Origin: an uncultured virus (IMG/VR IMGVR_UViG_3300029288_000146)
Lineage: Duplodnaviria > Heunggongvirae > Uroviricota > Caudoviricetes
Length of the DNA: 64,000 nucleotides
Direction: 5' to 3' (one strand)
IMG/VR virus record: IMGVR_UViG_3300029288_000146
Part shown: positions 11,506 to 56,420 of the stretch, one piece after another
Numbering within the stretch: position 1 is the first letter of the stretch
Layout: each line of letters begins with the position of its first letter
The notes under the pieces: model-generated
Databases searched by the model: none
What the model saw: only the letters and a program-made list of their open reading frames with translations
What the model was told of the DNA's origin: nothing
Made by a program: the position numbers and the translations under genes

Positions 11506-11569
11506 CCGACCCCTACGAGTCAGCACGGGATTTTACCATAAAATCCAGCAGGGATTTTCCGGTTGGGGG

Positions 11570-16199: not shown

Positions 16200-16201
16200 A
16201 A

Positions 16202-17104: not shown

Positions 17105-17691
17105 GTTTCCCCAAGAAGCTCCCGAAAGCACATAAAGAGGATGAAGTCCAGCGGATGCTGGCGCACGCCGACCGGAAGACACCGCAGGGTATTAGGGACC
17201 GCGCGATGCTTGAGATGCTTTACCAAGGGGGACTGCGGGTTAGCGAACTGGCGGATTTGCACGTCGAGGATGTGGAACTGGATGCCCAGCGGGGTCAGTA
17301 CATCATCATCCGGCGGGCGAAGTACGACAGCCAGCGAGAAGTACCGATCACCCGGAGCCTGCTGGTGTGGTTGCAGCGGTATGCGGCAGTGCGCTCACAA
17401 CTCAGCACCAAGGCGCATGAGTGTCCCTACTACTTCATCGGCAAACAGGGTCAGCTCACGCGGCAGTTCATCGGCCAGGTGGCGCGGCAACACGCAAGGG
17501 CTGTGGGCTTGAGCGGGTCGGCTCATGCCCTGCGCCACAGCATCGCAACCCACGTTCTCCGCGCCGGCGGCGACCTCCGCATGGTACAGCGCCTCCTGGG
17601 TCACGTCAGGTTGACATCCACACAGGTCTACACGGCCGTCGAACTCTCCGATCTCAAGAAGGCTTACGATGGCGCTCACCCGCTCGCGTGA
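17092..17691 (+). CDS. Tyrosine recombinase (XerC/D-like) 2, catalytic domain only
   Basis: RDRAMLEMLY.GLRVSEL, HALRHS.ATH, LLGH and TQVY; 199 aa. Confidence 0.9.
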   Translation: MGRVSFPKKLPKAHKEDEVQRMLAHADRKTPQGIRDRAMLEMLYQGGLRVSELADLHVEDVELDAQRGQYIIIRRAKYDSQREVPITRSLLVWLQRYAAVRSQLSTKAHECPYYFIGKQGQLTRQFIGQVARQHARAVGLSGSAHALRHSIATHVLRAGGDLRMVQRLLGHVRLTSTQVYTAVELSDLKKAYDGAHPLA

Positions 17692-17831
17692 TACCCCTCA
17701 GATGTGTGGAGGTTGTAATTCGGATAATGGGTATCCGAAATATTGGAGAAGGCATCCGGGAGAGGGGAATCGACCGGGGAGAATCGGCGTGGCTCTATTA
17801 TCAGCAGAGTTTTGACAGCAGAGTTTTCGTA

Positions 17832-19228: not shown

Positions 19229-20369
19229 TGATGGACTCCATCTCAGCGGCGGGCACCTCAACGAACAGCCCCCGCTGTGCGGTGCGCTTGCGTGCAAGCT
19301 CGATGTACTGTTGGTTAAGTTCGATCCCCACCCATCTACGCCCTAGCCGTTCCGCCACTTCGCCGGTCGTGCCGCTGCCCATGAACGGGTCAAGCACAAT
19401 GCCGCCAGGTGGACAGCCTGCCAGGATGCAGCGGCGCGGTAGCTCGGTGGGGAACGTGGCGAAGTGTGCTCCCGGGTATGGTTCCGTGGCAATAGTCCAT
19501 ACGTCGCGGGCGTTGCGGGCTGACGGGTAGCCGTCGTATGGTGCGCCGCCGCCATTCTCGCGCTGTGTCCTTCCGTCCATTTGCCACGCGCCCTTGCTAC
19601 CGACCGGCCTGCGTGTTTCGTTCGGATAGATAAGCGGTTCCGCAATCGCCGCCGCGTCGTACCAATACTTCGCGCTCTTGCTCAGTAGGAATACGTGCTC
19701 GTGGCTCTTGGTAGGCCGGTCGGTAACAGATTCGGGCATGGGGTTAGGTTTAGCCCAGATGATGTCTGAGCGCAGATACCAGCCAGCGGCTTGCAGCGCA
19801 AAGGCCACACGCCAGGGAATGCCGATGAGGTCTTTGGGTTTAGTTCCTGGCGGCTGCGGCATGACGGTTGTTCTATCTCTGGCCGGTAGACGTTTGTTGG
19901 CATTGAATCCCGCCCCGGTATTGGCGTTGTATGTGTCCCCCAGATTCAGCCAGCACGTCCCGTCTGGTTTCAGCACCCGACGCACTTGCTCGAATACAGC
20001 AACCATGCTGGCAACGTAGGCTTCCGGCGTGGATTCGAGTCCGAGTTGCTGGTCAATGCGTACAGCTCCACAGCGGGGGCAGATGTTTCGGTAGCCTTCG
20101 TGTTGATGGCCCGTGGTGGCCTTCCCGCCGTCTAGCGTGCTGCTGGCAACCCCGCGCCGCAGCGGGGTATCCGCTGGGGAGTGGTCACACTCCGGATCGC
20201 CGCCTTCCCATTGCGCCGTGCCATAATCACGCAATCCCCAATACGGCGGGCTGGTGACGCAGCAGTCAATGCACCCGTCCGGCCAGCCGCGCATAACATC
20301 TAGGCAGTCGCCGCAGTAGATCGTGCCGGGAGTCGGTTCCGCTTTGTCTGCCTGGGGCTTACGCTGCAT
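19221..20369 (-). CDS. Site-specific DNA methyltransferase (N4-C/N6-A, beta class)
   Basis: GDCLDV, VTSPPY, HFATFP and LDPFMGSGTT motifs. Confidence 0.93.
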   Translation of the reverse strand: MQRKPQADKAEPTPGTIYCGDCLDVMRGWPDGCIDCCVTSPPYWGLRDYGTAQWEGGDPECDHSPADTPLRRGVASSTLDGGKATTGHQHEGYRNICPRCGAVRIDQQLGLESTPEAYVASMVAVFEQVRRVLKPDGTCWLNLGDTYNANTGAGFNANKRLPARDRTTVMPQPPGTKPKDLIGIPWRVAFALQAAGWYLRSDIIWAKPNPMPESVTDRPTKSHEHVFLLSKSAKYWYDAAAIAEPLIYPNETRRPVGSKGAWQMDGRTQRENGGGAPYDGYPSARNARDVWTIATEPYPGAHFATFPTELPRRCILAGCPPGGIVLDPFMGSGTTGEVAERLGRRWVGIELNQQYIELARKRTAQRGLFVEVPAAEMESIND

Positions 20370-20607
20370 GATCCCTCTCGATGATCTTCCGCAGCTTCGC
20401 CAGTGCGTTGTCCCTGATCTCGCTCACCCGCCCCACACTGACGCCATACACGGCTCCGGTGGCCTTGAGTGTGTAGCCGTATTCGTAGAGCAGTGAGAGG
20501 ATGCCGCGCTCACGATCACTGAGCGTCTGGCAGGCGGAGTGGGCGGGGCCGCGCTCGCGCTCCAGGATGTCGAGCGGGTCGGCGGCTTGGATGGCTTGTG
20601 CGTTCAT
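20359..20607 (-). CDS. Stand-alone sigma70 region-4 HTH
   Basis: LSDRERGILSLLY..GYTLKATG.VYGVSVGRVSEI..NALAKLRK. Confidence 0.75.
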   Translation of the reverse strand: MNAQAIQAADPLDILERERGPAHSACQTLSDRERGILSLLYEYGYTLKATGAVYGVSVGRVSEIRDNALAKLRKIIERDHAA

Positions 20608-20865
20608 ACTTGTACCCCCTCTAAAACCCGAGTGGTTGCTGTAACGGAATCCCTGGTACTTGAAGGGTTGCCGTGCTCGGCCCGCACGCGAGTCTCAGGA
20701 TGGCGTAGAGGGTGTTGTCTTTGTATCCAGCACCCCGCGCGCTTTGAATCTCGTATCCTGTGAGTTTCCAGTCCTGAAATGCGGGCGGGCAGTCAACGAC
20801 TCTGTGGGTGAGCATGTCGAATGTCCAACCCTCGACGTGACACAGGTAGTCTTTCGCGTTGTCGG

Positions 20866-21390
20866 TCATACTTGTACCCCCATGGCTTCGCGCAGTTTGC
20901 GCAGGCCGTGTCTTTGCAGGGTGCGGACTTGCTCTAGGGATAGCAGCATCAGGGCCGCGATCTTGTACAGCGGCACCCCGCGAACGTAGTGCATCACAAG
21001 GGTCTGGCGCTCGTAGGGGTCGAGTTTCGCCAGGCGGCGGTGGAGTGTCCGGTGGAGTACGGCGCGCCAGGTGGGTTCCTCGGGACCGGGTTCAGTGGGG
21101 ATGCTCGCGCCGGTTTCCACCAGCTCCTCGAAGGAGTCCGGGCGCCGCACAGGGTTCCTCGGGCCTCGTCCGAGTGTGGCGCGGATGTAGTGGAGCATGT
21201 GTCCACGGGCATAGGCGTATCCAAGGGTGCTGGGCTGCGTACCCCGCGATGGTTCCCAGCGCCGCATCGCTTCCTGCCAGCCGATAAACCCCTCTTGCAT
21301 GAGGTCGTCGTACTCGATAACCGGTGGTGTTTTCAGTAGGAGCCTACGGGCCAGGGAATCACAGGCTCGTTGGCGGGCGGTGTCGGTCAT
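20866..21390 (-). CDS. Sigma70-family (FliA/SigF-like) sigma factor
   Basis: DDLMQEGFIG..EAMRRWEPSRG region 2 plus region-4 HTH. Confidence 0.85.
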   Translation of the reverse strand: MTDTARQRACDSLARRLLLKTPPVIEYDDLMQEGFIGWQEAMRRWEPSRGTQPSTLGYAYARGHMLHYIRATLGRGPRNPVRRPDSFEELVETGASIPTEPGPEEPTWRAVLHRTLHRRLAKLDPYERQTLVMHYVRGVPLYKIAALMLLSLEQVRTLQRHGLRKLREAMGVQV

Positions 21391-21416
21391 ACTACAAGTG
21401 GTCTCCGTTGACGATC

Positions 21417-22823
21417 TCATAGCTTGTTCGTGTCCATTACCAGGGCCAGGGGTGCCAGCCACCGCGCGTCAATGTCCATCGTCGGCCCGTTGCGGTTCTT
21501 TGCCAGCAGGAGTTGCATGGGTTCGAGGTCGGAGATGGCATAGGACGGCGGACAGGGTTTGGGTTTCTCGGGTGCGTGGTCGCGGTAGACGAATATCACG
21601 TTGTCGGCGTCCTGCTCGATAGCCCCGCTCTCTTTAAGCCACGATAGCTGTGGGCGCCCGCCACCGGAAGCCGCGCGGCTGAACTGGCTGAGGGCCAGCA
21701 CATGAATACCGAGTTCCCGAGCGAGCTGCTTCAGTCCCCGGCTGATCTGTGCTACTTCCTGGGCGCGGTTTGCCGTAGGGTCACTGGAACACATGAGCTG
21801 CAAGTAGTCCACCACCAGCAGCTTGATCCCCTGCTTGGAAATCAGCGACCGGACATTGTGCCGTAGCTGCTGGATGGATAGCACGTTCTTGTTGATGATG
21901 GCGATAGGCGCCTGAAGTATCTCGTTGTATGCCTGGGTCAGCACGTTCCATTCCTGCTGGCTCATGGCGGGCGAGCGCAGCATGGATGTGGAGATGTACC
22001 GGATTTGGTTGCCCGCCCAATACTTCGTCCCCATGCACAATATGCGTTCCCCTAGCCGCTGGTCGCTCATCTCCAGTGCGAACATTGCGCAGGGTATGTC
22101 CTTCTTGATCGCCAGGTGGCGCATGATGGAGAGCGCAAACGCCGTCTTGCCGTGGGAAGTCAGGGCCGCCACGATGGTCATTTCACCCTGACCCAATCCG
22201 CCGGTCTCCCGATCTAGGGCGTCATACCCCGTGGATAGCCCCGTGAGCAGGTTTGGTAGGTCGCTGTCCGGGTGCAGGGTGCGGTATTCCTCCATCTGGT
22301 CGGCGCGGTCACTCATGGCTTGCCAATATTCGACCGCCACGTCACCGATCATCCGGTAGTCGGGACCGCCACCGCTGGCGGAGAGCATCATGATCCCCTG
22401 CTCGGCTTTGTCTAAAACATCCTCGACCGCCATGTCCTGTCTGTGGCAATCCTCGATGGTTTCGACGCTGACCCGTATAAGTGCCCTCAGACGCGCTTTA
22501 TCGGCCACCTTGCGAGCGTGAGAGGCTATACCGGCCGCGCTAGGGACACTGTTGAGCATCGCCATCACGTCGGACTTGGGAACCACGTTTTCGAGTTTGC
22601 GGGAGTACAGCTCATCGAGTACGACATTGCAGTCCGGGGGGATACCACGCTCGTGCATCTCCCCCATGATGGTGAACAGCACCCGGTGGCCTTCGATGTA
22701 GAAATACTCGGGTTTCAGGATGTCGGCGGCAATGGGGTAGGCCGCCTTTGGTTCCAGCATGATCCCGCCGAGTATGCACATCTCCAGTTCGACGTTCGCG
22801 GGTGGGGTACGCTCAAGGCTCAC
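21417..22823 (-). CDS. dnaB: Replicative DNA helicase
   Basis: PPANVELE N-terminus, SHGKT Walker A, VVDYLQLM, LSQ, ESGAIEQDAD and KNRNGP; GTG start coupled to the initiator stop. Confidence 0.93.
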   Translation of the reverse strand: MSLERTPPANVELEMCILGGIMLEPKAAYPIAADILKPEYFYIEGHRVLFTIMGEMHERGIPPDCNVVLDELYSRKLENVVPKSDVMAMLNSVPSAAGIASHARKVADKARLRALIRVSVETIEDCHRQDMAVEDVLDKAEQGIMMLSASGGGPDYRMIGDVAVEYWQAMSDRADQMEEYRTLHPDSDLPNLLTGLSTGYDALDRETGGLGQGEMTIVAALTSHGKTAFALSIMRHLAIKKDIPCAMFALEMSDQRLGERILCMGTKYWAGNQIRYISTSMLRSPAMSQQEWNVLTQAYNEILQAPIAIINKNVLSIQQLRHNVRSLISKQGIKLLVVDYLQLMCSSDPTANRAQEVAQISRGLKQLARELGIHVLALSQFSRAASGGGRPQLSWLKESGAIEQDADNVIFVYRDHAPEKPKPCPPSYAISDLEPMQLLLAKNRNGPTMDIDARWLAPLALVMDTNKL

Positions 22824-35367: not shown

Positions 35368-36087
35368 TTAGGACTCCCCGATGCAGAGCAACGCAGGGTT
35401 CAGGACTCCGCCGTTCTCGTTGGCGACTTCGCCCTCGTTACCATGTTGGGTGTGAATGTTGTGCCAGCGCCGTAGGTCTTCGCCATACCGCCAACATCGC
35501 GCCAATATCCCCACTGCGCACCCGTACATGAAGCCGGTTATCCCGTGGGGTATGTCCGCCATGTGGCTACAACGTTCTGCCACATCTTCGAGTTTGGCTC
35601 CGGTCGCCATTTCCTTCTGCATCAGCTGCGCCCATGTTTCGGCGTAGCCGAAGACGCACCGGCCGTAACCGTCTTTGTTCTTCTCCAGGCCGGTGCGCCA
35701 ATCGTCTGCGTCGCGCAATTCCATCGGTGGCGCCCCGGCGATTGCCGACTCAAACCGGCGCATATCCTCAGCGTGTTTGCGGTCGTATTCAGCTTGCCGC
35801 TCCCGCCGCCGCTTTTCGTTCTCCGCTTCAACCCGCGCATCGTTCTCGCGGTCGGCATCCGTTAGTTCGGCCTCTGGGTATGGACCAACCGGGCCCGGGA
35901 TGTATCCCATCTGCCCGCGTTGCTGATCTCGCCAGATCAGGCTGAGATTGGAGTCGGCATTAACCAACACCACCACGCCATTGATTGTGTCCCGCGCGGT
36001 AAAGCCGCCGATGCGGGCCATTTCCTTCATCTTGTCTAGGCCATCAGAGATGAGCCCGAAACCAGAGTTAACATCCACGATATTCAT
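35368..36087 (-). CDS. Conserved phage hypothetical protein
   Basis: Clean 239-aa ORF with GITGFMYGCAV..L..CW.YGE motif. Confidence 0.65.
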   Translation of the reverse strand: MNIVDVNSGFGLISDGLDKMKEMARIGGFTARDTINGVVVLVNADSNLSLIWRDQQRGQMGYIPGPVGPYPEAELTDADRENDARVEAENEKRRRERQAEYDRKHAEDMRRFESAIAGAPPMELRDADDWRTGLEKNKDGYGRCVFGYAETWAQLMQKEMATGAKLEDVAERCSHMADIPHGITGFMYGCAVGILARCWRYGEDLRRWHNIHTQHGNEGEVANENGGVLNPALLCIGES

Positions 36088-37219: not shown

Positions 37220-38218
37220 GCGGCACCATCCTTGCGTTCGGTTTTTGGGGTGTCCGTGGTGATCTCGTAGTCCTTAGTTATCTGCTCGCCGAACACGTTG
37301 AAAACTACGGTCACGGTCGATGTTTTTGGGGGGGCTTGAGTGGTCATGCTTTCACCTCTATGCCCAGCGCTTCCTGGGCCTCGCCAACGGCATTCAGCAG
37401 GCAATCCGCCTGGATGTTGCCGATTGTGTTATGTAGTGCGTGGGCCATGTCGAGCATCCCATCGATGTAGCCGCCGATGTAGCCCTTGTTGTGTGGATTC
37501 TGGAGGCGGTTACAAACCCCGGCCAGGTGGTCGTAGAGACCGGGGATGGGCTCGATACCGTAGAGCATCTGCAAGCGGTGGGGTGTCCAAGGGATCATGC
37601 CGCACCTCGCTTATCCCTTCTTTCCCTTGCCAACCAATGCCTCGCTTCGTTTTCCGCGTCGTGGTGCATCCCCCGCCAACCCCGGCGGGCGGCGTGGTCG
37701 AGTTGTTTGGCGACGTGTGCGACTCCCGCCAGGGGGAAGGCGGTAAATTCCCAGAGCACGTAACCCAACTGGTCGTCAGTGCAATCGGGGAAGTAGAACC
37801 TCGCTAGCTCTAGCCACGTCATGCCGCACCTCCTCTCAGTACTTGGTCGGCCACCCGCAACGCCCGCCATATCTGGTCTTCCTCGCGGGTCGTGCCAGCC
37901 GCCATGCCACAGGGTAATGGCTTTGGCGATCTCCTTGTCATACCAGTCGTCGTCTTCGTTCACGTCGCCGTCGTTTTCCAGCGGCTCGATTCCCTCTGGC
38001 GCTTGTTCCGCTAGATAGGTGGGCGGATCGAGCACTTGCCGGGCGCGGCTGTAGGGGTGGTTGTAATGGGCCATAAACATGCGACCATGCAGCCAGGGAC
38101 ACCAATGATGGAATGTAAGAATGGCGCAAAGGCAGTCCACCAGTTCTACCAGCGCAACCAGCGTCTGCCATCCGTGAACGATAAGGTATGCACGAAACTT
38201 GCTCATTCCCCACCCCCG

Positions 38219-38247
38219 TTGACATCCCCGCAGGCGCGTGCTACAAA
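38219..38247 (+). promoter_or_regulatory. Promoter for antisense moron
   Basis: TTGACA-17-TACAAA with TG extension. Confidence 0.5.
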
Positions 38248-38280
38248 GGCGCCATCCTTAATCTTTTCTGGGGTGTTATG

Positions 38281-38457
38281 ATGGCCGAGTATCGGAAGCC
38301 TAAAGGCAGCGACACGTGGCATTACTGCACTAATTGCAGCCGCTGGCCCACCAGTGACTACGATTCCAAGCACGACGCCGACCGTCCTACCGATGGCGAG
38401 CTGTGCAATGAATGCAAATCCAAAGAGAAGGACGGCACCTGCAAGAAGAAGGTCTAG
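38281..38457 (+). CDS. Small Cys/His zinc-binding protein (moron)
   Basis: WHYCTNC...LCNEC; occupies the gap between minus-strand genes. Confidence 0.65.
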   Translation: MAEYRKPKGSDTWHYCTNCSRWPTSDYDSKHDADRPTDGELCNECKSKEKDGTCKKKV

Positions 38458-38752
38458 CATGGCCGCGCTCCGGTAAACTCAAGGGTCTCTTGATCCCCGG
38501 CGAAGTACAGTGGGCCGCGTAGGGAATAGGGGATGCCCCGTGCTTGCGCGAGGTCGTCAAAGCACGCCAGGCAGACGACGAGGTTGCGGTAGGCTTCAGG
38601 AACCACCGCCGCCCACGTCGCGTCGTCCACGGCGAAGTTGAACTTGTCGCGGCGCCCGCAGACTTTGCACGTCTGGTTTTGGAGCGCGCAACAAGGATAG
38701 GGGGTCTGGGGTTGGGGACAGCGACCGCAGCGGATGCAAGTGGGGTGGTTGA

Positions 38753-38953
38753 TCATTCCCCACCCCCGGTCTTGCGCGCGGCCTCGTAGTTCTCTACGTC
38801 TACGGGGTCGAACAGGTAGACCTTACTCATCTTCACCGCTGCTAGTTCCCGCCGCGCTACCATTCTGTAGATCGTGCGCGGGCAACATCCCCAGCGCTCT
38901 GCGAGTTCGGAAACTGACATCAGGTGTTTGGATTCGCAGCTTCGATGTTGCAT
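38753..38953 (-). CDS. Cro/excisionase-like HTH, first gene of the leftward operon
   Basis: MSVSELAERWGCCPRTIYRMVARRELAAVK. Confidence 0.8.
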   Translation of the reverse strand: MQHRSCESKHLMSVSELAERWGCCPRTIYRMVARRELAAVKMSKVYLFDPVDVENYEAARKTGGGE

Positions 38954-38962
38954 AACGCCGCT

Positions 38963-39040
38963 ATTGTAACCGGAAATAGAGCATTGTCAAGGTAAAATCC
39001 CAAATTTCCGGTTGACTTTTGCCCGGTTGTGTGGTATTAC
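38963..39040. promoter_or_regulatory. Divergent promoter pair
   Basis: Minus strand TTGACA-16-TACAAT (38990-38963); plus strand TTGACT-17-TATTAC with TGTGG (39012-39040). Confidence 0.75.
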
Positions 39041-39278
39041 GTACTATCACGTACTCGCGTGCTCTTTCGGGGACGCAGGCGTGATATATTTAGAGTATGG
39101 ACAGGACTATTACCCCCCGTGACCACAAACTGGGCTCGCGCCTTACTGGAACTGGTCTGCGCAATGATGCTACTGCGAGCGGCGCGGCGGAAGTCGCGGT
39201 GTTACAATGTCGTGAGACCCGGCGCGTGAGGGTGCCGGTGTTCAGTGGTAGGTTTAAGTGGTGATTGGTGGAGGGCAT

Positions 39279-39854
39279 ATGCGGAACTTAGTGTTGGTAA
39301 TGGCGATGCTGGTGCTGGGAGCGTGCTCGGGTGGGCAAGGGGCCGTGACACTGGAGCCGGGGGAGATCGTGGGTCTGCCCAGCATAGCGGAGTTGGAGCG
39401 GGCGACGATGGGTTACGAGGATGAGCCAGTCAGCGCCTACTATACCTCCGGGTGCGACACGCTGCTGTACGAGGATGGGATACACACGGGTGTTAGGCCG
39501 GTTGGCATGGAAAACATGGTGATTGGCTACGCGACCTATGCTTTCTACCACGATCCCGCCATTCCCCAGGAGCGCTACCAATACGTGACCGCGTATTACC
39601 CCCCAGCCGACGCCGACGCCAAGGGTCAGATTTACATCGGCTTGGCGGACTTCGGCCGTGGGCGCTGGCTGTTCCATAGGGTGTTCCATGACTGGCGCGG
39701 ATATGATACCGGCTGGGATTTGGCGTTCGACATCCGGGAAGCCGAGAATCCCTTCAACGAGTACAACATGCTGTACTACGTGGTGATCGCCTATGGTGAG
39801 GACAGTTACGTGGTTGTGGGTAACGATCCCCACATCGTCCTGGCAGAAGAATAA
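39279..39854 (+). CDS. Lipoprotein
   Basis: Signal peptide with LGAC lipobox, GGAGG RBS. Confidence 0.8.
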   Translation: MRNLVLVMAMLVLGACSGGQGAVTLEPGEIVGLPSIAELERATMGYEDEPVSAYYTSGCDTLLYEDGIHTGVRPVGMENMVIGYATYAFYHDPAIPQERYQYVTAYYPPADADAKGQIYIGLADFGRGRWLFHRVFHDWRGYDTGWDLAFDIREAENPFNEYNMLYYVVIAYGEDSYVVVGNDPHIVLAEE

Positions 39855-39881
39855 GGTAACAAGACTTTGGGAGGCTTTACG

Positions 39882-40286
39882 ATGAGGTTTGTTGTTGTGG
39901 TGTTACTCTTGGCGTGTCTGGTTTCCTGCGGCGGTGGGGGAGGAACACCAGATGAGAACTTCGATCCCACAGGAATTTGGGTGGGTACGCTCGACGGGGT
40001 GGACATCGCCTGGGAGATCGTGGCGCTGGGTGGCGGCTATGGGCTGCGGATGTCCCTGGATTCCGACGAAACAACTATTCCTCTGGTGTTCAATGGTAAG
40101 AACTTCACAGGAACCGAGACGCTTTACTCCCTAGAGGGATACCATCGCCAGGATACTACGGTTGTGGGAACCGTGGATGGGGATTCCATGACCGGCCATA
40201 GCACTCGCATTGAGACGGTCATCGATGGGTCGCACGCGGGGGAAACAGAGACCGATGAAGGGGATTTCACGGCGTCTCGCAGCTAG
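39882..40286 (+). CDS. Lipoprotein (beta-rich, acidic)
   Basis: Signal peptide with LVSC lipobox, TGIWVGT motif. Confidence 0.8.
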   Translation: MRFVVVVLLLACLVSCGGGGGTPDENFDPTGIWVGTLDGVDIAWEIVALGGGYGLRMSLDSDETTIPLVFNGKNFTGTETLYSLEGYHRQDTTVVGTVDGDSMTGHSTRIETVIDGSHAGETETDEGDFTASRS

Positions 40287-40307
40287 GAGTGTTCCACATT
40301 AGGCTAT

Positions 40308-40340
40308 CCCCGGCTCGTCCTTGCACGCGCCGGGGTTTTT
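40308..40340 (+). terminator. Rho-independent terminator
   Basis: CCCCGGC/GCCGGGG stem followed by TTTTT. Confidence 0.75.
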
Positions 40341-40383
40341 AATGCCCCATAAATCCCGAGCGGTGGCCGTATGTTATGTGTTC

Positions 40384-41190
40384 GAGGGCGAGCAACAAGT
40401 TGACGGGGGATGTTCGGCTTACCGGATGATCCCCCGGCCCTCACCATTGAAAGCTGACCTGCCATGTGTAGGAATAGTACGCGGGTCGTCAGCGTAAGTC
40501 TAGGCTAGGACATGAGTTCAGCCTGAGTGCAGCGGGCGGCCCGCGATTTGAAAACATGCGTCCTGATGTATTAGGGGCTTCGCGGGGTGCGCCCAGAAGG
40601 CTATAGGCTACGGCTTGGTCAAAGCACCCCGCTCTTTGAAAACATAACAGTGCTTCCCGGGCTTAGCCTGCTGACGAGCAGTGACGCCGACCAGGGAAGC
40701 CTTATACTGGCGGGCCGTCACCGTGATGCTGCCTAAGAGCGCCCCGAATGGGGTTGCGAGGATTGGCTCACATCGGCGGCCCGTCTTTTGAAAACATGCC
40801 AGTTAGTAGTCGGAACGAAAGCGGTTGCCTGACGGCTTGTGTCCAAGCGCTTTGCCGGTTGTGCGCTGGCAGTATCAACCGGCTTTGAAAACATGTTGTT
40901 GCCAACCAAAACTCAGTACCTTGTTAATGAGGGCGGTGAGGCGACAGCGCCGGAGGGTAAGCCCGTAGGTCACAAGGGATTAGCGGGATAGAGTCCCGGC
41001 GTCCTGAAAGGGGCGGCGATCCGGCGCCGCGAAACCCCAGCCTACCGGAAGTCCTAGGATAACGGGCTGGGGGTGCTTGAAAACATACAGCTCTGATCCT
41101 GGTTCAGTTCCAGGGGTAGGTGCTCACCGGGCCGCCAACCAAGCGAGTTCTGATCAAACCGCGCTGGTGGGAGTAATTCCCCTGGCGGCC
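40384..41190 (+). ncRNA. Putative structured ncRNA array with TTTGAAAACAT linkers
   Basis: About 9 long stems, G-U pairs and a GAAA loop favouring the plus strand, 5 conserved linkers, no credible ORF. Confidence 0.7.
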
Positions 41191-41191
41191 C

Positions 41192-41470
41192 CTACTTCTT
41201 CTTCAGCCGCCGGACTTTCCGCACCATTCCCAGGGGTATTACGTGCGCCTGGCCGAACCGCGCATACCCGCCATTGATGAAGCTCCCACACATCACCAGC
41301 GCCCCTTTGCGCTTCCCCAGCAGTAGCCCCACGCTCCGTACCACGACTGGCTTACCTCGTGCGGCTACGTCCTTTCCCGTCAACCACACGCGGTCTTCCG
41401 GCGGCACCATGTCGTGCGCGTCAACCCATGTCACTTCAACCATTCGCAGCTTAGTCTTCTTCATCTTCAC
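41192..41470 (-). CDS. Small phage protein (VxWxDA..SVGxL..IP family)
   Basis: VEVTWVDA, RSVGLL and VIPLGMV; paralog of the upstream ORF. Confidence 0.7.
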   Translation of the reverse strand: MKMKKTKLRMVEVTWVDAHDMVPPEDRVWLTGKDVAARGKPVVVRSVGLLLGKRKGALVMCGSFINGGYARFGQAHVIPLGMVRKVRRLKKK

Positions 41471-41774
41471 CCTCTTCCCACAGCAGCGCGAGTTTCTTCA
41501 ACCAGGGTACAGGAATCACGGTAACGCTGCGGAACTGGAGCTGCTGTTCTTCGAGCCCGAAGGCGGAATAGTAACCCGTCTCATGGGCGATGGAGATGTA
41601 GCCGGGTTTGTCGGCGGTGGCTTTCTCGTGGCCCACAAGGTAGCCCACTGAGGTCACCAGCGCCGGAGTGATCTTCTCAATGTCGTCCGCAAGGATTGGG
41701 TCTTTGCGGGCCACGGCGTCGTACCATACGGCCTTGACGAGCTGGCCGTCAGGAACCGGGATGTTAATCTTCAT
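41451..41774 (-). CDS. Small phage protein (same family)
   Basis: AVWYDA, TSVGYL and VIPVPWL. Confidence 0.7.
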   Translation of the reverse strand: MKINIPVPDGQLVKAVWYDAVARKDPILADDIEKITPALVTSVGYLVGHEKATADKPGYISIAHETGYYSAFGLEEQQLQFRSVTVIPVPWLKKLALLWEEGEDEED

Positions 41775-42594
41775 GTTGACTCCTCATCCATGCAAGATAC
41801 AGTAGGCAGTACACGGCCAGGTCAAGGTAACTGTCGAGGGTGGGTTCGTTCAGGGCGACCGGGTGGCCGTGTAGGGCGGAGAAGGTGGCGGATGTTGCGG
41901 CCTGCTTCTCCAGGTTGCGGATGCGTTCGTACTTGTTGCCGATGTGCAGCCGGATGGCTTGTGCGACCGAGCAGCCCGCGAAGTCCGCACTGCCCTTGAA
42001 GTTGGCGAATGGGTCGCCGCCTCCGCAGTAATCGCGCTGCTTGCGGTCATGGGTGCAGGCGGCTTCCCACAGCAGGTCGTAAAACGCACGGCTACCAGCG
42101 AAGTCCGCAAAGACGCTAGCGCTGGCGGGGGGGATCAGGGATTCCTCGGTGGGCATGGGTTGCCCGGCGCGCTGCGCCGCTTCGAGTTTGGCGGATGCCT
42201 CGGGGTTTAGATGTAGCATGGGTGGCTCCTGGTCGTGGGGGTTTTCGTTGTAGATCACAGTGATGGCTCCACACTCCATACAATGAACGGCCACGATGGT
42301 TGTGGGGCTATCGAAGCGCCACGCAGGATCGCGGCCTATCACCAGGGATGTGTTCTCGGAGTGGCACTCGGGGCAGAGGTGGACAATTTCAGCGCTGCCT
42401 GGGGAGATGATGAGCGGTGAATCGCGGAGTCCTTCCATGGCCGCACACATCTCCTCGCGCGTTAGCGGCAGCAGGAACAGGGGTTTGGTGCTTTCGTCTG
42501 GGTAGACGGCGGATGTGTCGATGGGGGGGGTCTCGGGAACCCAATCGGTGCGAGTGGGGCCAAGGTAGTCGTTAAGGGAGTCGGGGTTAGTCAT
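41764..42594 (-). CDS. Zn ribbon + nucleotide-modification-associated (DUF1599/Nmad1-like) domain
   Basis: KQRDY...DPFANF...KYERI.NL...E...DSYLDLAVY. Confidence 0.65.
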   Translation of the reverse strand: MTNPDSLNDYLGPTRTDWVPETPPIDTSAVYPDESTKPLFLLPLTREEMCAAMEGLRDSPLIISPGSAEIVHLCPECHSENTSLVIGRDPAWRFDSPTTIVAVHCMECGAITVIYNENPHDQEPPMLHLNPEASAKLEAAQRAGQPMPTEESLIPPASASVFADFAGSRAFYDLLWEAACTHDRKQRDYCGGGDPFANFKGSADFAGCSVAQAIRLHIGNKYERIRNLEKQAATSATFSALHGHPVALNEPTLDSYLDLAVYCLLYLAWMRSQHED

Positions 42595-43301: not shown

Positions 43302-44552
43302 CTAATCTCCCTCTCCGAATAATTCATTGCTGGTCGCCCAGTTCTCGTCACTGTCGCTGGTGAACACGGCGTCGTATCCCCCATCCGGGTAGATGTGCAT
43401 ACCCACGCCGCCCATCCCCGGCGGTTCGTATCCCGCCTTGTGTGCATACGTACCCCAGAAGCCCAGCATTGCCGGACCAATGACCACGTATTGCTTCTTC
43501 AGCGCCACCCGCAGGTTGGCCTTGTCCTCCACGATGCAAGACACGGCGTTGTCAATGGGGTCGTGGACGTGGAAGCTCACAACGAACTCCACGAAGTCGT
43601 TGAAGATGCGCGGACGGGCAGCGGCGTTATGCTTACCCCCTTTGGTTTGCGAGGCGCTGCGCCCGTGCATGATGTGGGCGCCCCAGTCGTGGCCCTGCCA
43701 GAGCATCCGCAGGCGTAGCGGGAAGTTGAAGTAAGGTACGTTCAGCATCTTCGCCAGGGGCTCAAGGATTTCGACTCCCGCGCGCTTGCTGGTGCGGTCC
43801 TCGTGGTTGCCGCTGTGCAGGAACAGGCACTTGTGGGCTATGGGAGCGAAGAAGTCGAGCATGTCCAACCACTGCTGCTGCGGGTGGTACTGCTGCGAGT
43901 AGATGTAACCACGGCCATCATCTAGGGCGTTCTCCATGAGATCGCCGCCACCGAACCAGTAGACGCCCTCGTGTTCCTCGATGTACCGCAGGGTGGCGCG
44001 GAACTTCTCGTGCAGGTGCGCCTGGTGGCCGTAGTGGGTGTCGGCAATGGGGATGATCTTGATGCGCTCGGTGTGGTCGTGGAATTGCGCGGCCATGTAG
44101 ATAGGGACGCCCGTGCGGGGGTCGGTTTGGAGCGTGCAATCCCAGGCGCGGGGCTGAACACGGGGAACTACATCGGGTTGCCGCAAGAGGATGAAGGTTT
44201 CGTGGCCGTAGTCGTCACGGGTGCGGAATAGCCGAAGGTTCCCGAAGTCACCCGTAAGCATCGCCGTGGCTTCACCCTCACTGCATCCCATCCGCGTGGC
44301 GATTTCCGGTAGTGTCCGCGCGCGGGAAAGGAAGTCCCGCAGGCGGGTGTCCCCAAGATCAGCCGGGGGTTTCCCGGCCGGCAGGGATGCGAGCTTCTGG
44401 CGGACTTGTGAGGCGTTGTAGTGGCCACCAGGGAATCGCTTATTCAGGGCATCGGCTTTGTCGCGGTAGGAACCGCTGAGTGTGGCTAGGTGTGCAAGAA
44501 CTTCTGGCCGCCACTTGTGCGATTGCTCGTACTGGTTAGGCATTGGCGGCAT
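43302..44552 (-). CDS. Calcineurin-like metallophosphoesterase
   Basis: ADTH, GDLME, GNHE, HG and HVH motifs. Confidence 0.85.
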   Translation of the reverse strand: MPPMPNQYEQSHKWRPEVLAHLATLSGSYRDKADALNKRFPGGHYNASQVRQKLASLPAGKPPADLGDTRLRDFLSRARTLPEIATRMGCSEGEATAMLTGDFGNLRLFRTRDDYGHETFILLRQPDVVPRVQPRAWDCTLQTDPRTGVPIYMAAQFHDHTERIKIIPIADTHYGHQAHLHEKFRATLRYIEEHEGVYWFGGGDLMENALDDGRGYIYSQQYHPQQQWLDMLDFFAPIAHKCLFLHSGNHEDRTSKRAGVEILEPLAKMLNVPYFNFPLRLRMLWQGHDWGAHIMHGRSASQTKGGKHNAAARPRIFNDFVEFVVSFHVHDPIDNAVSCIVEDKANLRVALKKQYVVIGPAMLGFWGTYAHKAGYEPPGMGGVGMHIYPDGGYDAVFTSDSDENWATSNELFGEGD

Positions 44553-45171
44553 CCTCGGTCAGAGTGATACTCGTTGACAGGCACCATTCCACGGGCAGTT
44601 GATGTGGGGTTAGGGTTCCACCGGGGCCGATGTTGCTCTGATATGCGCGAGCGGACAGCGCCCCGAATAGCGCCTCCTTGATGTCATAGGTGGGCGATAC
44701 GGCCTTGGTCGCATCCAACACGATCTCGGCGGTATAGCCGCACTTAACGGCGTCCCGGTAGGTTGCCATCACGCAGTAATCCAGCGCGACCCCGCAGATG
44801 TACAGATGTGTGTCACGGGGCAGGATGGAGCGCAGTTCGGGCGTGAATCCGCTGTATTGCTCCGCTGCGGGATCGGTTCCCTTGTCGATAACGGTTGAGC
44901 CAGGGGGAACCGGAAGGAAGTCGTTGATCCTCGCGCCGCTCGTTTCTGCTATGCAGTGCGTGGGCCATTGCCCGCCGTTTTCGATGAAGCTGCAATGATC
45001 CGCCGGGTGCCAGTCCCGCGTGAAGACGACGGGTTGTTGCGCGCGCCGGAATCCATTGATCAGCGCGTTAATAAGGGGCGGCAGGGTGTAAGCGTAGGGG
45101 ACGTATAACGCACCACCAGGATACACAAAGTCGTTCTGCATATCCACGACTATCAGTGCCGACTTAGGCAT
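44536..45171 (-). CDS. pncA: Nicotinamidase
   Basis: VDMQNDF..GGAL, TRDWHP..HCSF, WPTHC, KG...YSGF and ALDYCV. Confidence 0.92.
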   Translation of the reverse strand: MPKSALIVVDMQNDFVYPGGALYVPYAYTLPPLINALINGFRRAQQPVVFTRDWHPADHCSFIENGGQWPTHCIAETSGARINDFLPVPPGSTVIDKGTDPAAEQYSGFTPELRSILPRDTHLYICGVALDYCVMATYRDAVKCGYTAEIVLDATKAVSPTYDIKEALFGALSARAYQSNIGPGGTLTPHQLPVEWCLSTSITLTEDAANA

Positions 45172-46492
45172 GCGGCATGCTCCTTTTCATCTCTTCCACC
45201 TGCGGACTCGCGGTGCAGTAGTGAGCGGTTGCCGATTGTTCCAGCGACAACTGCAAGGCCGTGTATTCGCGGATGCCGGAGAGCGTCGGGCGCGAGCAGC
45301 ACAACTCGCCGCGAGAGAACACGGGAACCAGGAGGTCGTGTTCGGAATTGAGCGGCGTTTCGGACGCCATACGGATGGTGTCGTAAATGATGGTGCCTAC
45401 ATGCCGCGTCAAACGGTGAGCGCCTGGTAGGGTACCCTTCCCCGGCGCTGAGGCGTGGGTCTTGCAGCGGGGGTGTCCGTCGATTTCCACGAGCTTGTAA
45501 ACCCCGCCCAGCGCCGCATCGGGCGCGCCAGTAACCAGACGGGTTCCCACACCCCAGCCATCAATGGGGAGATCGCGCATGGCGGCAATGCTGGTCTCGT
45601 CCAAGTCGCTGGAAGCCAGAATGACACCATCAGTCCAACCGGCGTCGTTCATGGCCGTCCGGGCGAAGCACGCCAACTCCGGTAACTGCGATCTCTCGGC
45701 ATCCAACCGGATACCGCCGCCCACCAGACCGTATTTGATCTTGGTTGCGACGGCTCGCTCGATACCCCGCCGCGCGTCATAGGTATCCACGAGCAGGATG
45801 CAGCGCTGCGGGTAAATGAAGGCGTAGTTGTCGAACGCCCCTTGCTCGCTCGCGTGGCTCATCACCCACGAATGCGCCATGGTGCCGGCCGTGGGGATAC
45901 CCCAGCGCAGTCCGGCGAGTTCGTTGGATGTACCAGCGCACCCCGCGAGATATGCCGCCCGCGCAGCCAGCACGGACGCCTCTACTCCATGTGCGCGGCG
46001 CATGCCGAAGTCATAAACTGGCTTGCCCTCCGCCGCCAAGACGCAACGGGCGGCTTTGGTGGCGATAAGCGTCTGGAAATTGATCGTGGTCAGAATTACC
46101 GTCTCTAATAGCTGACATTGGAGGAGAGGCCCACCGACCTTGACCAATGGGGCCATGGGCTGGACAACGGTTCCTTCGGGAACCGCCTCGATGTTGCACG
46201 TTAAGCGTAGTCCGGCGAGATAATCCAGGAAACCGCTAGAGAACATCCCCGATTCCGACAAATAACGGAGTTCTTCATCGCCAAACCGTAGATCGCTCAA
46301 GTGCTCAATGAGTGTGTCCAGCCCCGCCGCAACCGTGAAATGTCCACCAAAGGGATTCCGGCGGAAGAACATCTCGAATATGGCAGGGGTCTCGTGCATT
46401 CCGCTCGCAAAGTAACCGTTCGCCATGGTGAGTTGGTAATGATCAGTAGCGAGCCAAGAAGATGTGGGGTTAGGCATTCGGCTCTCCGCCAC
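45164..46492 (-). CDS. pncB: Nicotinate phosphoribosyltransferase
   Basis: TDHYQLTM, FEMFFR, DFGMRRAHG, GTMAHSWV, LVDTYD, GVGTRL and VYKLVE. Confidence 0.92.
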   Translation of the reverse strand: MAESRMPNPTSSWLATDHYQLTMANGYFASGMHETPAIFEMFFRRNPFGGHFTVAAGLDTLIEHLSDLRFGDEELRYLSESGMFSSGFLDYLAGLRLTCNIEAVPEGTVVQPMAPLVKVGGPLLQCQLLETVILTTINFQTLIATKAARCVLAAEGKPVYDFGMRRAHGVEASVLAARAAYLAGCAGTSNELAGLRWGIPTAGTMAHSWVMSHASEQGAFDNYAFIYPQRCILLVDTYDARRGIERAVATKIKYGLVGGGIRLDAERSQLPELACFARTAMNDAGWTDGVILASSDLDETSIAAMRDLPIDGWGVGTRLVTGAPDAALGGVYKLVEIDGHPRCKTHASAPGKGTLPGAHRLTRHVGTIIYDTIRMASETPLNSEHDLLVPVFSRGELCCSRPTLSGIREYTALQLSLEQSATAHYCTASPQVEEMKRSMPHA

Positions 46493-46791
46493 CAGTCACG
46501 ATCAGCGGACTCCTCGCGGGTTCCGGTGTCCCTTCCTGTCCCTTTCCGTTGATGAGTCCTGGTGCCAGTTGGTTGAGCCAGCCCAGCAGGACATTCACCA
46601 GGAAGTCGTGTACCAGGGGCTGGCCGATGTGCTGCATGGTCAATCCGGCGGTTGCCAGCAGGTGGGCGCGTTGGCCCTCGGACAGGGCATCCCAGGTCAC
46701 GGGAAGTACATGGGTGGTGTCGTACTTCACGCGTTCGGAGTAGGCGTGCCAGATTTGGGCGAGGCCAAGCGCGGTGACGATGGGTGGGGTT

Positions 46792-47436
46792 TCAGTGTCC
46801 ATGGTTACGCTCCACAAAGTCGCAGTGTTTGATTTTGGTGATGATCCGCTTCCCGCGCCGGTCGCACAGTTCCCGTTGTGGACGCGCTACGATGCCCTCA
46901 GCGACGAAGTTGCCCCACTGCGATACAAACCCCTCGCGCACTAGCTTGATGCCGTCCAGCAGCCCCCCAGCGCCGATTACGGGGACAACGCCCACGCCCA
47001 GCGCCTCGCCAATCGCGGCGACGTTCTCCCGTTCCAACCAAAGGCCGCCCACTGACACATCAAAGAGAGCGAAGTCGCAGCCATTGGGGTTGTAGTTGCC
47101 CCCGCCCTTCTGGATGCGCGCGCCGTAACCCTCTCCGTACAGCACGGCTTCGGAGCTGCTGAAGATGCTGTGGTTGGCGGCGGCGGGGGCTTCAAAGAGA
47201 TCGCGCAGGCGGTCGAGCAGGAAGGTGGGAATCGAGGCGTTATCAGTCCGTCCGCCGTAGTGGACACGCTCGCCATCCCAGATGATGCGGATGTTGGTTC
47301 CGTCCACCTTCTCAGTGAACACCCAATCGTTTTCCGCGAGATAGGCAAACTCCGGGGTCGTGTACTCGCCCTCGATGATCTGCCGGGTCTCGGGGTCGCG
47401 CTTGAACACCGTCTGGATTTTGTGGTATTCAGTCAC
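46792..47436 (-). CDS. RNA ligase (Rnl2-like nucleotidyltransferase domain)
   Basis: YHKI, TEKVDGTN, LYGE, LFDV, EGIV and KIK. Confidence 0.85.
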   Translation of the reverse strand: MTEYHKIQTVFKRDPETRQIIEGEYTTPEFAYLAENDWVFTEKVDGTNIRIIWDGERVHYGGRTDNASIPTFLLDRLRDLFEAPAAANHSIFSSSEAVLYGEGYGARIQKGGGNYNPNGCDFALFDVSVGGLWLERENVAAIGEALGVGVVPVIGAGGLLDGIKLVREGFVSQWGNFVAEGIVARPQRELCDRRGKRIITKIKHCDFVERNHGH

Positions 47437-54768: not shown

Positions 54769-55152
54769 CTACCCTATAACTTACGGACTACTTTCCCCCG
54801 TAGTAAGCCAGGATTTCCGCCAGCATCAGGCGGATTTTTTTAATGGTACACAGCTTGATTAAAAGCTGCTTTAACGCATCCTTCCCCAGCCGCTCGATCA
54901 GCTTCCAGATGTCGAGTGCTTCGGGGGTGATGTTGCGCTTAACGTCCTTGACGGCGCGCTCGATGTCCTTCCAAATGCTCATGTGGTTACTCCTGGCGCA
55001 TATTGCGCAACTGCATTTCAACATCTTCCAGTGCGCGGAGATAGGCAGAGCGCATAGCTTCATCGAGCTGCGCTTGGGTATAGCTCCGAGCAGTCGCTTC
55101 GGCTGTCACATCGCCCCCATTGGGGCGGTTGTCTCTATCTGTCGTCATGTGG

Positions 55153-55857
55153 TTACTCCTTCGCCGTGGTAACGGCGGGTGTCTCAAATAGCGTTTTCGC
55201 GCTACGCTCAATCTTTAGCGGCGGACTGATATAGCCGCTACGATCCCAGATGGAATTACTCTCGTAATCCCGCGTCTTCAGGGCGTGGATGAATCCGCGA
55301 TGTATGGCGGGAGCCGGGAGGGCTTTGATGAGGATGTCAACGGCGGCGGTCTTGGTGGCGCTCCGCTTTAGGGGAATGCCGTGATGAAGGGCAAGGTCAA
55401 TGACTTCTTCCCGCCACATCGCCGCCAAGCGCCAACAGGGGTCAAGGTCGCCCTTCCCGTGGGTGTACCAAGGGGCGGGTGTGAACTTCGGCCAACTACT
55501 CAGCTCAATGCCGCTTCCCCCCTCTCTGGCTTCAACTTCATGCGCCCATTGCACATATGAACTGCCGTGATCGTTGAGCGCCTTCTTTGCTTGGGCGGCC
55601 AGGGATTCCGCATAAACCACCACGACATTGCCCGCAAAGTGCCAATACCACTGACACTGTCTCTTCCACCGCTCGCCGAAGCTGTCACCCTCGCCCTTGA
55701 TCTCGTAAACCACCAGACTCTGCTCGAAAACCACAAGGACATCCGCGCGCACATCCCCCAGCGGGAACTCGCAGATAATCCGCGTGTCGCTCATGTTGTA
55801 GGTTTCCCTACACCTAGCGACCACGGCTGCGGTTATCTCGCTGGCGGTTAGTCCCAT
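55153..55857 (-). CDS. sce7726-like PD-(D/E)XK protein
   Basis: EF....RADV....YEIKGEGD...R...Q...Y. Confidence 0.7.
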   Translation of the reverse strand: MGLTASEITAAVVARCRETYNMSDTRIICEFPLGDVRADVLVVFEQSLVVYEIKGEGDSFGERWKRQCQWYWHFAGNVVVVYAESLAAQAKKALNDHGSSYVQWAHEVEAREGGSGIELSSWPKFTPAPWYTHGKGDLDPCWRLAAMWREEVIDLALHHGIPLKRSATKTAAVDILIKALPAPAIHRGFIHALKTRDYESNSIWDRSGYISPPLKIERSAKTLFETPAVTTAKE

Positions 55858-56420
55858 GTGGTTACTCCTTGTCAGTTGTGGTACGGGTGCTGTAAGTGAC
55901 GGTGAATGTGTACGGGTTGCTCGGCCAGTGTTCATAGGTGATCTGATCCGGCCAGGGTGGATAGATGCCCCACCAGGGATAGGGATAGTAGGGGACGGGG
56001 TATGGCCGGATGGGTTCGGCGACCAACTCCCCAGACTGCGGTTCCGGGTCGCCCTCGCTGTATTCGCAGCCGCAGTCCCGGCAGCACCACGTAGTGACGG
56101 GCGAGACCATGCTAACAGCTATCGTGTATATGTTCTCCGATCCACACTCAGGACATGGCGGTCTGTGATTGCTGCCGTGTTTCATGATGGTGATTGGCAT
56201 GTGGTTACTCCTCATCCCATTGCATCTGTGCTAGATAACCAGCATGGCAGAAAGTGGCGGTTGAGGCACACGTAACCACCCAGGTATAACCCTCCTTCCC
56301 GCAGTCGCAATCGTCATGCCGCGCCTGTGGATATGTCCGCATGCAGTACATATCCCCGCAATGCAGCACCGTCCCTACTGGCATCGCGTTTAGTTCGTCT
56401 TCCGTATAACGTCGCACGCC

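Follow-up and report, generated by a model that had tools for sequence, protein, structure and literature searches.

A tandem array of hairpin modules in an uncultured phage genome carries a ten-base linker complementary to a distant gene leader

The DNA considered here is a window of 64 kb (64,000 nucleotides) out of a 76,478-bp metagenomic contig of an uncultured phage (IMG/VR record IMGVR_UViG_3300029288_000146); 12.5 kb of the contig falls outside it. The GC content of the window is 59.6%. Leftward genes run from ~8 kb to position 1 and rightward genes from 8416 to ~18.9 kb; a second leftward block extends from 38953 to 19221, and a short rightward block from 39279 to 40286. This is followed by a gap of 0.9 kb, on which the leftward genes of the right-hand part, running from past 64000 down to 41192, converge. 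The element that concerns us lies in this gap. It is an array of ~850 bases (40341-41191), non-coding, in which six hairpin modules are joined by a 10-base linker. The array is known from this one uncultivated phage genome, read as DNA sequence only. The runs listed as containing it are of DNA, none of RNA; one may be its source, and a second contains a few fragments of the phage, all identical to it, with no sequence variants among them.

The linker, TTGAAAACAT (UUGAAAACAU when written as RNA), occurs exactly at five places on the + strand of the window (40548, 40636, 40788, 40885 and 41077) and at one on the − strand (8390-8399). With up to one mismatch allowed there are nine matches, against a mean of 1.69 in 100 shuffled sequences, none of which reached nine. 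The series, all of it read on the + strand, is opened by a degenerate linker, L0 (TTGAAAGCTG, 40447-40456), the module of which, M0, is homologous to M1. Module U0 (40458-40547; -45.1 kcal/mol) consists of a small hairpin and a 66-nt hairpin, H0 (40481-40546). There follow in turn L1 (TTGAAAACAT, 40548-40557), U1 (40558-40635), L2 (40636-40645), U2 (40646-40787), which has two hairpins, the second of them (H2) a paralogue of H0 and H5, L3 (again an exact TTGAAAACAT, 40788-40797), the weakly structured U3 (40798-40884), L4 (40885-40894), the multi-branched, 182-nt U4 (40895-41076), L5 (41077-41086) and finally U5 (41087-41191), the last hairpin of which, H5 (…GGCGGCCC), abuts the stop codon of the convergent gene 41192-41470. 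The exact linkers are spaced by 88, 152, 97 and 192 bp; each comes after a stem and starts with two to four U. The modules are paralogous: a small hairpin and, after it, a CGCGGG… hairpin are common to M0 and M1, and M0, M2 and M5 all end in …GGCGGCCC. They have diverged to a mean column identity of 38% while the five linkers stay identical, which argues for selection on the linker sequence itself.

The predicted folding of the array depends on the strand. On the + strand, 40440-41190 folds to -320 kcal/mol (z-score, z, -3.84; none of 20 shuffles as stable), against -281.9 kcal/mol (z -1.43) on the − strand. When seven segments were folded separately, with 200 shuffles for each on both strands, z was more negative on the + strand in five of them: U0 (-5.55, reached by none of the 200 shuffles, vs -0.5 on the − strand), the segment before the array (-1.43 vs -0.23), U1 (-1.68 vs -0.79), U2 (-2.8 vs -1.66) and U4 (-2.67 vs -1.42). 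The order is reversed in U3 (-0.54 on +, -1.39 on −) and in U5 (-2.83 on +, -3.14 on −). Three paralogous closing stems have different 5' strands (GGGUCGUC, GGGCCGUC and GGGCCGCC) opposite the invariant 3' strand GGCGGCCC, and they differ only by C/U opposite G, so that pairing is kept on the + strand and A·C mismatches arise on the − strand. The array is best read as + strand RNA. In the ensemble of the 851-nt RNA the linkers have mean unpaired probabilities of 0.39-0.92, against 0.36 for the whole RNA, and opening energies of 0.17-2.6 kcal/mol; the values are 0.84 and 0.39 kcal/mol for L1, and 0.92 and 0.17 kcal/mol for L4. An ‘anti-linker’, TGTTATGTGTTC (40372-40383, +), is 92% complementary to the linker, and is predicted to pair with linker 2 with probabilities of 0.42-0.85 at 11 of its 12 positions.

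That the stretch is non-coding follows from its open reading frames (ORFs), none longer than 66 aa, from the low GC content of their third positions (0.43-0.58, vs 0.64-0.74 in the neighbouring genes) and from the different reading frames in which the linkers lie. Three linkers can be read as FEN(M/I), and coding or peptide repeats were rejected on the same three grounds. Other readings of the array were likewise set aside. As a promoter -35 element the linker is accompanied by a -10-like hexamer only in M0 and M1, and no shared -10 was found for a reading of the ECF (extracytoplasmic function) type. As a replication origin the array has better iteron candidates to compete with, at 7974-8040, and shows no skew switch; as an attachment site (attP) it would lie 23 kb from the integrases.

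The single − strand copy of the linker, 8390-8399, is the only exact one outside the array in the 64 kb, and is found at -26..-17 of gene 8416. This gene (8416-8631, +; 71 aa) is the first of its operon and an orphan, the homologue search returning only itself. It is preceded by a promoter that a simple scanner missed, TTGCGC-16-TACAAT with an extended -10, TGTGGTACAAT (8348-8375, +), the design of which recurs at 11566-11598. The candidate target, GTTATGTTTTCAAGC (8387-8401, +; core 8390-8399), lies in the short 5' leader; the ribosome-binding site, GGAGAGG (8402-8408), begins two bases past the core and the start codon is at 8416. Ten-base words of the same composition occur outside the array 0.019 times on average, both strands counted (97 occurrences over 5040 distinct words), and in the -40..-1 regions of the 93 listed genes 0.001 times per word (5 in 2883 positions). 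The observation is real and unlikely to be due to chance.

An earlier note on this DNA had singled out two 13-mers of the array, 40636-40648 and 41075-41087, as complementary to 8387-8399 and 8389-8401 near the ribosome-binding site. Both are correct, and each occurs once outside the array, as those complements. Beyond the ten shared bases, only 7 of 25 flanking positions agree over the five linkers, where 6.25 are expected, and the extra matches of the 13-mers are not evidence. Duplexes between linkers and leader are computed at -12.8 to -22.5 kcal/mol, with linker 5 at -18.1 kcal/mol and linker 2 at -22.5 kcal/mol, the latter including five upstream pairs (CCGCU:AGCGG) that extend into the ribosome-binding site by two bases. 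To open the target takes 3.4-6.9 kcal/mol with transcription starts assumed at 8377-8384. Among 93 initiation regions, linker 2 pairs best with the 8416 leader, which also shares first place among all 40-nt windows of the 64 kb. The note's RNA reading of the array is supported to this extent by the folding and the pairing probabilities, according to which the array is structured, is best read on the + strand and has accessible linkers antisense to this leader.

Single-mismatch copies of the linker are found at 4836, 39508 and 49596, roughly the number expected by chance. The first of these, 4836-4845 (TTGAAAACTT), lies in the 78-nt gap upstream of 4364-4771 (−), at the head of the operon of the large terminase subunit, itself encoded at 2615-3913 (−); on the mRNA strand, three GC-rich hairpins come after it.

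To the left of the array is a pair of divergent promoters. The leftward one, of the sigma-70 type, is TTGACA-16-TACAAT (38963-38990, −; 11 of 12 consensus matches in the promoter scan). The rightward one, TTGACT-17-TATTAC with an extended -10, TGTGGTATTAC (39012-39040, +), begins 21 bases from the -35 of the first and was missed by the simple scanner on account of its final C. An operator-like inverted repeat, CCGGAAAT-N26-ATTTCCGG (38970-39011), spans the two; the 8-mer occurs seven times in the window, where shuffled sequences average 2.17, and the copies of the promoter pair are at 38970 and 39004. The leftward promoter precedes a gene for a helix-turn-helix (HTH) protein of 66 aa (38753-38953, −; alternative start 38922), the first of a long leftward operon. 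It is of the HTH_17, or excisionase/MerR-like, type (PF12728, E 2.8e-10) and also matches phrog_66, ‘excisionase and transcriptional regulator’ (E 5.4e-07). Because another HTH_17 ORF, with a weak match, adjoins the integrases, the gene at the switch is more likely to encode a regulator than an excisionase. The rightward transcript would begin with a hairpin (39045-39086, +; arms TATCACG at 39045-39051 and CGTGATA at 39080-39086), the 100-nt leader being no more stable than shuffled sequences (z -0.71). Two ORFs with lipobox-type N-termini, called by eye, come next: the first (39279-39854, +; …LVLGAC) is an orphan that found only itself in the homologue search, and the second (39882-40286, +) has …CLVSC. 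A strong, canonical intrinsic terminator closes the group (40308-40340, +), with a stem CCCCGGC…GCCGGGG followed by UUUUU; its 64-nt context folds to -22.6 kcal/mol (z -2.48). The back-to-back promoters, the Cro/Xis-like gene read leftward, the leader hairpin and the two lipoproteins had all been reported in the earlier note, and all are present as described there.

It should be added that the extended -10 TGTGGTA(C/T)(A/T)A(T/C) is common to three + strand promoters (8344-8375, 11566-11598 and 39012-39040), two of which also share an upstream GGGGTTGCGCA; this looks like a promoter class of the phage. Exact matches to TGTGGTAYWAY are confined to 8365 and 39030, and 11588 has a copy with one mismatch. 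The rightward promoter had been given a lysogenic role. Since it shares this element with the promoter of the presumed target, opposite regulation of the two is not suggested, and that part of the earlier proposal loses ground. The same proposal held that the switch lacks a CI gene, and no CI, XRE or S24 match was indeed found (Pfam) among the 126 ORF translations of the window; the statement holds for the window, not for the 12.5 kb of contig beyond it. A lambdoid CI/Cro switch was rejected on similar grounds, the divergent promoters being present and HTH_3, XRE and S24 matches being absent from the same translations.

How might these observations be connected? The most economical account is antisense pairing, because the two complementary sequences both belong to + strand transcripts and one of them is repeated in the unpaired linkers of an RNA whose structure is biased to that strand. 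We therefore favour, tentatively and at rather less than an even chance, a modular non-coding RNA of the + strand whose linkers pair with the 8416 leader. On the strength of the sequence, 40341-41191 would encode such an RNA of ~0.7-0.85 kb, or a small set of RNAs processed from it, and its six GC-rich stem-loop modules would have arisen by duplication. The linkers would be the functional part, forming 10-13 bp with the leader and as many as 17 bp in the case of linker 2. The duplex would end 0-2 nt from the ribosome-binding site, so that the array would control translation in trans; the stability of the target mRNA would probably be under the same control. The anti-linker, by pairing with linker 2, may buffer or fold the array. 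The sign of the effect could be either repression, by occlusion of the ribosome-binding site, or activation, by its release, because in alternative folds of the leader the UUUUC of the target pairs with GGAGA of the ribosome-binding site. What computation shows is that the linker is repeated, that it is complementary to the leader to a degree unlikely by chance, that the structure favours the + strand and that the linkers are accessible; the existence of the RNA, the promoter it comes from, the pairing itself, the direction of its effect and any part in immunity or timing are inferred.

A fuller version, rather unlikely as it stands, would make this a polyvalent seed-array RNA, in which six duplicated scaffolds present five identical single-stranded seeds. 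By pairing beside the ribosome-binding site these would act in trans to silence, or to time, a separate early-type operon at its first gene; a target mimic built into the same RNA would buffer the array, and the whole would replace a protein repressor or an early-gene shut-off factor. The RNA-based immunity put forward in the earlier note is supported in part only: the complement lies beside the ribosome-binding site more often than chance predicts, but the link between the array and a rightward ‘immunity’ operon is not supported, and immunity is at most a possible role.

Several observations weigh against antisense control by the array, the chance-level agreement of the flanks being one. The five seeds have a single exact target, and the near-copy at 4836-4845 is within the number of one-mismatch copies expected by chance. 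By duplex energy the leader ranks only fourth and fifth of the 93 initiation regions for linkers 5 and 1 and falls outside the top five for linkers 3 and 4; for all linkers other than linker 2, GC-rich chance duplexes score as well or better. The 8416 leader has no significant structure when folded alone, and the leader behind the promoter of the same design at 11566-11598 contains no target. The terminator at 40308-40340, absent from the first account, separates the lipoprotein ORFs from the array, and the promoter-like elements beyond it are weak (TTGAAA-16-TAGGAA at 40447-40474, TTGAAA-15-TATTAG at 40548-40574 and GTGACG-16-TATACT at 40681-40708, the last with 9 of 12 matches in the scan), so a link of the array to the rightward operon, as had been supposed, is not supported. 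Each of these candidates would place a transcription start at the first base of a large hairpin. Finally, the operator-like repeats that span the divergent promoters make a protein regulator likely.

The comparative evidence is unfavourable to the same reading. The best relative, a 72.5-kb contig (L107), has 53% identity on the phosphoesterase and is syntenic upstream of its gene. Its operon ends with a zinc-ribbon gene and a homologue of the C-terminal half of the 294-aa protein, at which point a convergent serine recombinase adjoins it; the module of HTH gene, lipoproteins and array is absent altogether. Other relatives have different gene orders, and no relative with the array was found; the nearest homologues of the phosphoesterase (P0002-P0006) are 45-53% identical to it. 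An alignment search with the phosphoesterase yielded 33 metagenome and two genome loci, none of which has the linker pair; locus searches in IMG/VR with the phosphoesterase and with lipoprotein 1 gave no match, and that with the neighbouring 294-aa protein gave two distant loci. Cultured phages offer no close relative: 38700-41250 had no blastn match in 50,697 phage records, and at the protein level only distant matches emerged, the best being 39% identity over 55% of the phosphoesterase, with none for the 730-aa protein.

Pattern scans of IMG/VR for two linkers 70-100, 100-130 or 130-160 nt apart returned 99, 69 and 40 loci, and the loci inspected (101 + 108) were all without hairpin modules and did not resemble the window; nor did the first set contain a blastn match to 38001-42000 at E 1e-3. 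GC-rich loci of these scans (L029, L045/L074, L138, L207, L241 and L221) proved to be coding repeats. Others (L048, L151, L152, L009/L071 and L093) are DNA tandem repeats with a CATTGAAAACATTG core, and represent five unrelated contig families with a GC content of 0.5 or more, the word lying in their intergenic tandem repeats. Four of these families, L093 being the exception, have the core CATTGAAAACATT(G/A), with other flanks and no hairpin modules. The repeats stand upstream of terminase genes in L048 and L152/L245, and beside a replication-initiator gene in L071. In L152/L245 (18,968 bp) the intergenic stretch 16680-16910, which separates a primase-helicase from the terminase module, contains three CATTGAAAACATTGAGAAA units, every one of them enclosed by GCCGGAAAT…ATTTCCGGC inverted repeats; this 8-mer inverted repeat is also found at the divergent promoters of the window. 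Neither this contig nor the other repeat contigs have protein homology to the window.

These contigs keep alive, without establishing it, a reading at the level of DNA, which we consider unlikely though not negligible; the earlier note had itself offered an operator with the array as a decoy as its alternative. The 10-bp word would be the site of a phage or host DNA-binding protein, and its five direct copies would serve for titration, as a decoy, or in handcuffing, packaging or the control of replication; at +9..+18 of the 8348 promoter it would be an operator or roadblock, and the hairpins unrelated terminators or insulators at a convergent junction. A shared double-stranded site would link array and leader without any RNA. 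Iteron-type and partition systems, which the present arrangement resembles, commonly combine direct-repeat arrays with a single copy within a promoter region, and a site of 10 bp fits the chance-level flanks, the tandem repeats without hairpin modules in other contigs (a point against RNA pairing), the CCGGAAAT/ATTTCCGG inverted repeats of L152, like those of the window's promoter region, and the near-copy 4836-4845 just upstream of the terminase operon. It leaves unexplained, however, the structure specific to the + strand, the C/U changes opposite G and the position of each copy in an unpaired linker right after a stem. The spacings of 88, 152, 97 and 192 bp show no helical phasing, the site is non-palindromic, and no candidate binding protein was identified. 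Moreover, the motif of the other contigs is really CATTGAAAACATTG, with different flanks and no protein homology to the window at E 1e-6, and, by a rough estimate, chance would yield as many such contigs for any 10-mer.

Of comparable, and similarly low, probability is that the array does yield non-coding RNA or RNAs from the + strand, in which the linker serves as a processing site or a protein-binding motif, the complement at 8390 being without function. The linker might be a ribonuclease site, a terminator-like U-tail merged with the -35 (TTGAAA) of the next unit, or a means of sequestering a protein in the manner of CsrB, RsmZ or CrcZ. The architecture, stems separated by a repeated unpaired motif, is what this would predict; every linker follows a stem and starts with its run of U, promoter-like hexamers in M0, M1 and M2 place starts at the first base of large hairpins, and a valency of five is typical of sponges and needless for one target. 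It requires, on the other hand, that the leader complement be a coincidence, at an expectation of 0.001-0.02. M3-M5 have no -10-like element at a suitable distance, ten invariant bases exceed the needs of known ribonuclease sites or of a -35 hexamer, and neither a known sponge motif nor an Rfam family is matched.

A transcript of the opposite strand is a poor prospect. The array would then form a long 3' untranslated extension of the leftward operon ending at 41192, and AUGUUUUCAA would be bound by one RNA-binding protein, as a translational operator in the early leader and as a decoy in the array. With no intrinsic terminator after 41192, that operon should indeed read into the array, and the word is read in one and the same sense in the 8416 leader, the 4836 near-copy and a − strand transcript of the array. 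Such an RNA folds no better than the Watson-Crick share of the + strand structure allows (z -0.2 to -1.7 in six of seven segments), turns the stem variants into A·C mismatches and, being C-rich and untranslated, would probably be a substrate for Rho. The 107-aa neighbour offers only weak fold matches to ribosomal-subunit chains (best E 0.04). Equally doubtful is that duplicated terminator or insulator hairpins have piled up at the junction to no specific purpose and match the leader by chance: the array does lie between convergent transcription units, its module is missing from the nearest relative and the flanking proteins are all orphans, but five identical 10-mers persist amid diverged modules, a complement so close to a ribosome-binding site has an expectation of ~0.001, and 850 bp without coding function are unusual in a tightly packed phage genome.

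As regards the genes next to the array, 41192-41774 (−) encodes proteins of 92 and 107 aa, weakly paralogous (29% identity), at the end of the leftward operon. A distant homologue, P0126 (823 aa), carries their domain seven times. The 107-aa protein has two weak homologue matches and is modelled as a beta-barrel with a mean pLDDT (predicted local distance difference test) of 71; its best PDB matches, to ribosomal large-subunit chains (E at least 0.04, TM (template modelling) score ~0.45), are too weak for it to be named an RNA-binding protein.

To return to an antisense role, the earlier note had named as precedents the immunity RNAs of P4, P1 and N15. An excerpt of the literature on P4 CI RNA (PMC4825925) describes a phage non-coding RNA with short complementarities to phage leaders, acting in place of a protein repressor. 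The array is like P4 CI, P1/P7 C4 and N15 CA in its short complementarity to a phage leader, here 10-13 contiguous bp with 8387-8401, and, as in that group, a near-copy of the target is present in cis, here upstream of the array (40372-40383, agreeing with 8387-8397 at 10 of 11 positions and lying 65-700 nt upstream in the same region). The known RNAs are single and small, encoded in and acting on the same transcription unit, in P4 via transcription termination, whereas the array has five identical seeds on six scaffolds and an exact target 32 kb off, in another operon, beside a ribosome-binding site. RNAs of the P4 CI/C4/CA type are matured by RNase P from a tRNA-like fold, and the C4/CI-type antisense RNA is a curated Rfam family. 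ARAGORN found no tRNA gene and hence no such cloverleaf in the 64 kb, and Rfam gave no match at gathering score over the 64 kb and none at E up to 10 over 38900-41300. The array is alike in principle to P4 CI RNA and its relatives and is no member of their family, since it lacks a family match, has tandem seeds and has a distant target beside a ribosome-binding site.

Other classes share single features with the array. Like Hfq-type or prophage base-pairing small RNAs it would present a short accessible seed within the 30S footprint, on units of a stem and a few U; unlike theirs, its seeds are polyvalent and tandem in one locus, its promoters and 3' ends being predicted only. Sponges such as CsrB/RsmZ and CrcZ are also stem-loop series with a short repeated unpaired motif (unpaired probability 0.39-0.92 here). 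Their motifs are GGA (Csr/Rsm) or A-rich (Hfq/Crc), in contrast to the exact 10-nt word of the array, which has neither motif, no Rfam match and a complementary site on an mRNA. Iteron or operator arrays, too, have direct repeats at one locus, five in this case, with one copy just downstream of a promoter; here, unlike in those, the repeats stand at long and uneven distances (88-192 bp), with strand-biased hairpins in between, and no initiator gene is adjacent. With GOLLD and ROOL the array has in common that it would be a highly structured non-coding phage RNA of several hundred nt, but it matches no Rfam model and is internally repetitive with an exact linker. A CRISPR array or RNA anti-CRISPR mimic was rejected, the conserved unit being 10-12 nt (25 nt at 88% in two copies only) and the spacing irregular. 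TIGR-Tas systems (abstract of PMC12045711) combine regular short guide units with a Nop-domain Tas protein; the irregular spacing and the lack of a Nop-domain match among the 126 ORF translations speak against such an array. ToxI-like repeats of type III toxin-antitoxin systems are likewise discounted, the modules differing (38% mean column identity) and no + strand gene following the array.

Elsewhere in the window, Pfam identifies ORFs for DnaB, a sigma factor, a beta-clamp fusion, two tyrosine recombinases, a DNA methylase, a Tad4-domain protein, a nicotinate phosphoribosyltransferase (NAPRTase), an isochorismatase, a phosphoesterase and an RNA ligase. The phosphoesterase (PHROG ‘DNA repair exonuclease’), isochorismatase, NAPRTase and RNA ligase (PF09414, E 1.3e-17) genes form one cluster (43302-47436, −), which with the Tad4 domain at 35368-36087 looks like a counter-defence set for NAD salvage, RNA repair and anti-Thoeris activity. 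At 20359-21462 (−) a 198-aa sigma factor with regions 2 and 4 is followed by an 82-aa protein made up solely of sigma region 4 (E 3.1e-14). On the − strand at 54980-56216, AAGGAGTAACCACATG, a ribosome-binding site with start codon, occurs four times ahead of consecutive genes and is a conserved strong initiation cassette. The 460-bp non-coding region 7880-8340, with three copies of GGATATGCGG (7974, 7998 and 8030), two of CGGATAA(A/G)CGAA, TAGGGGTT-type repeats and an AT-rich tract, may be a replication origin or a complex control region. Within 8850-17826, CAGCAGAGT(T) is found 11 times, always on the + strand, inside the 8.4-18.9 kb rightward operon and never on the − strand; most copies are preceded by a hexamer like TAAAAT, TAATAT or TATTAT, and it is a candidate phage-specific promoter or oriented signal.

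To our knowledge, phage RNA regulators that replace proteins are few (P4, P1/P7 and N15), each of them a single small RNA that acts in cis on its own operon. If the antisense reading is true, the array would be the first antisense regulator with multiple, tandem seeds to be described from a phage, and would represent a new design of RNA control in which an invariant 10-nt seed, drifting scaffolds, dosage by valency and a built-in decoy are combined; being compact and portable, it could also serve as a part in synthetic regulation. If instead the word is a DNA site, it would belong to an unrecognised protein-DNA control system linking a convergent junction to the leader of an operon. Either way, the locus is an 850-bp structured non-coding element without an Rfam match, in an otherwise unknown lineage of 76-kb phages.

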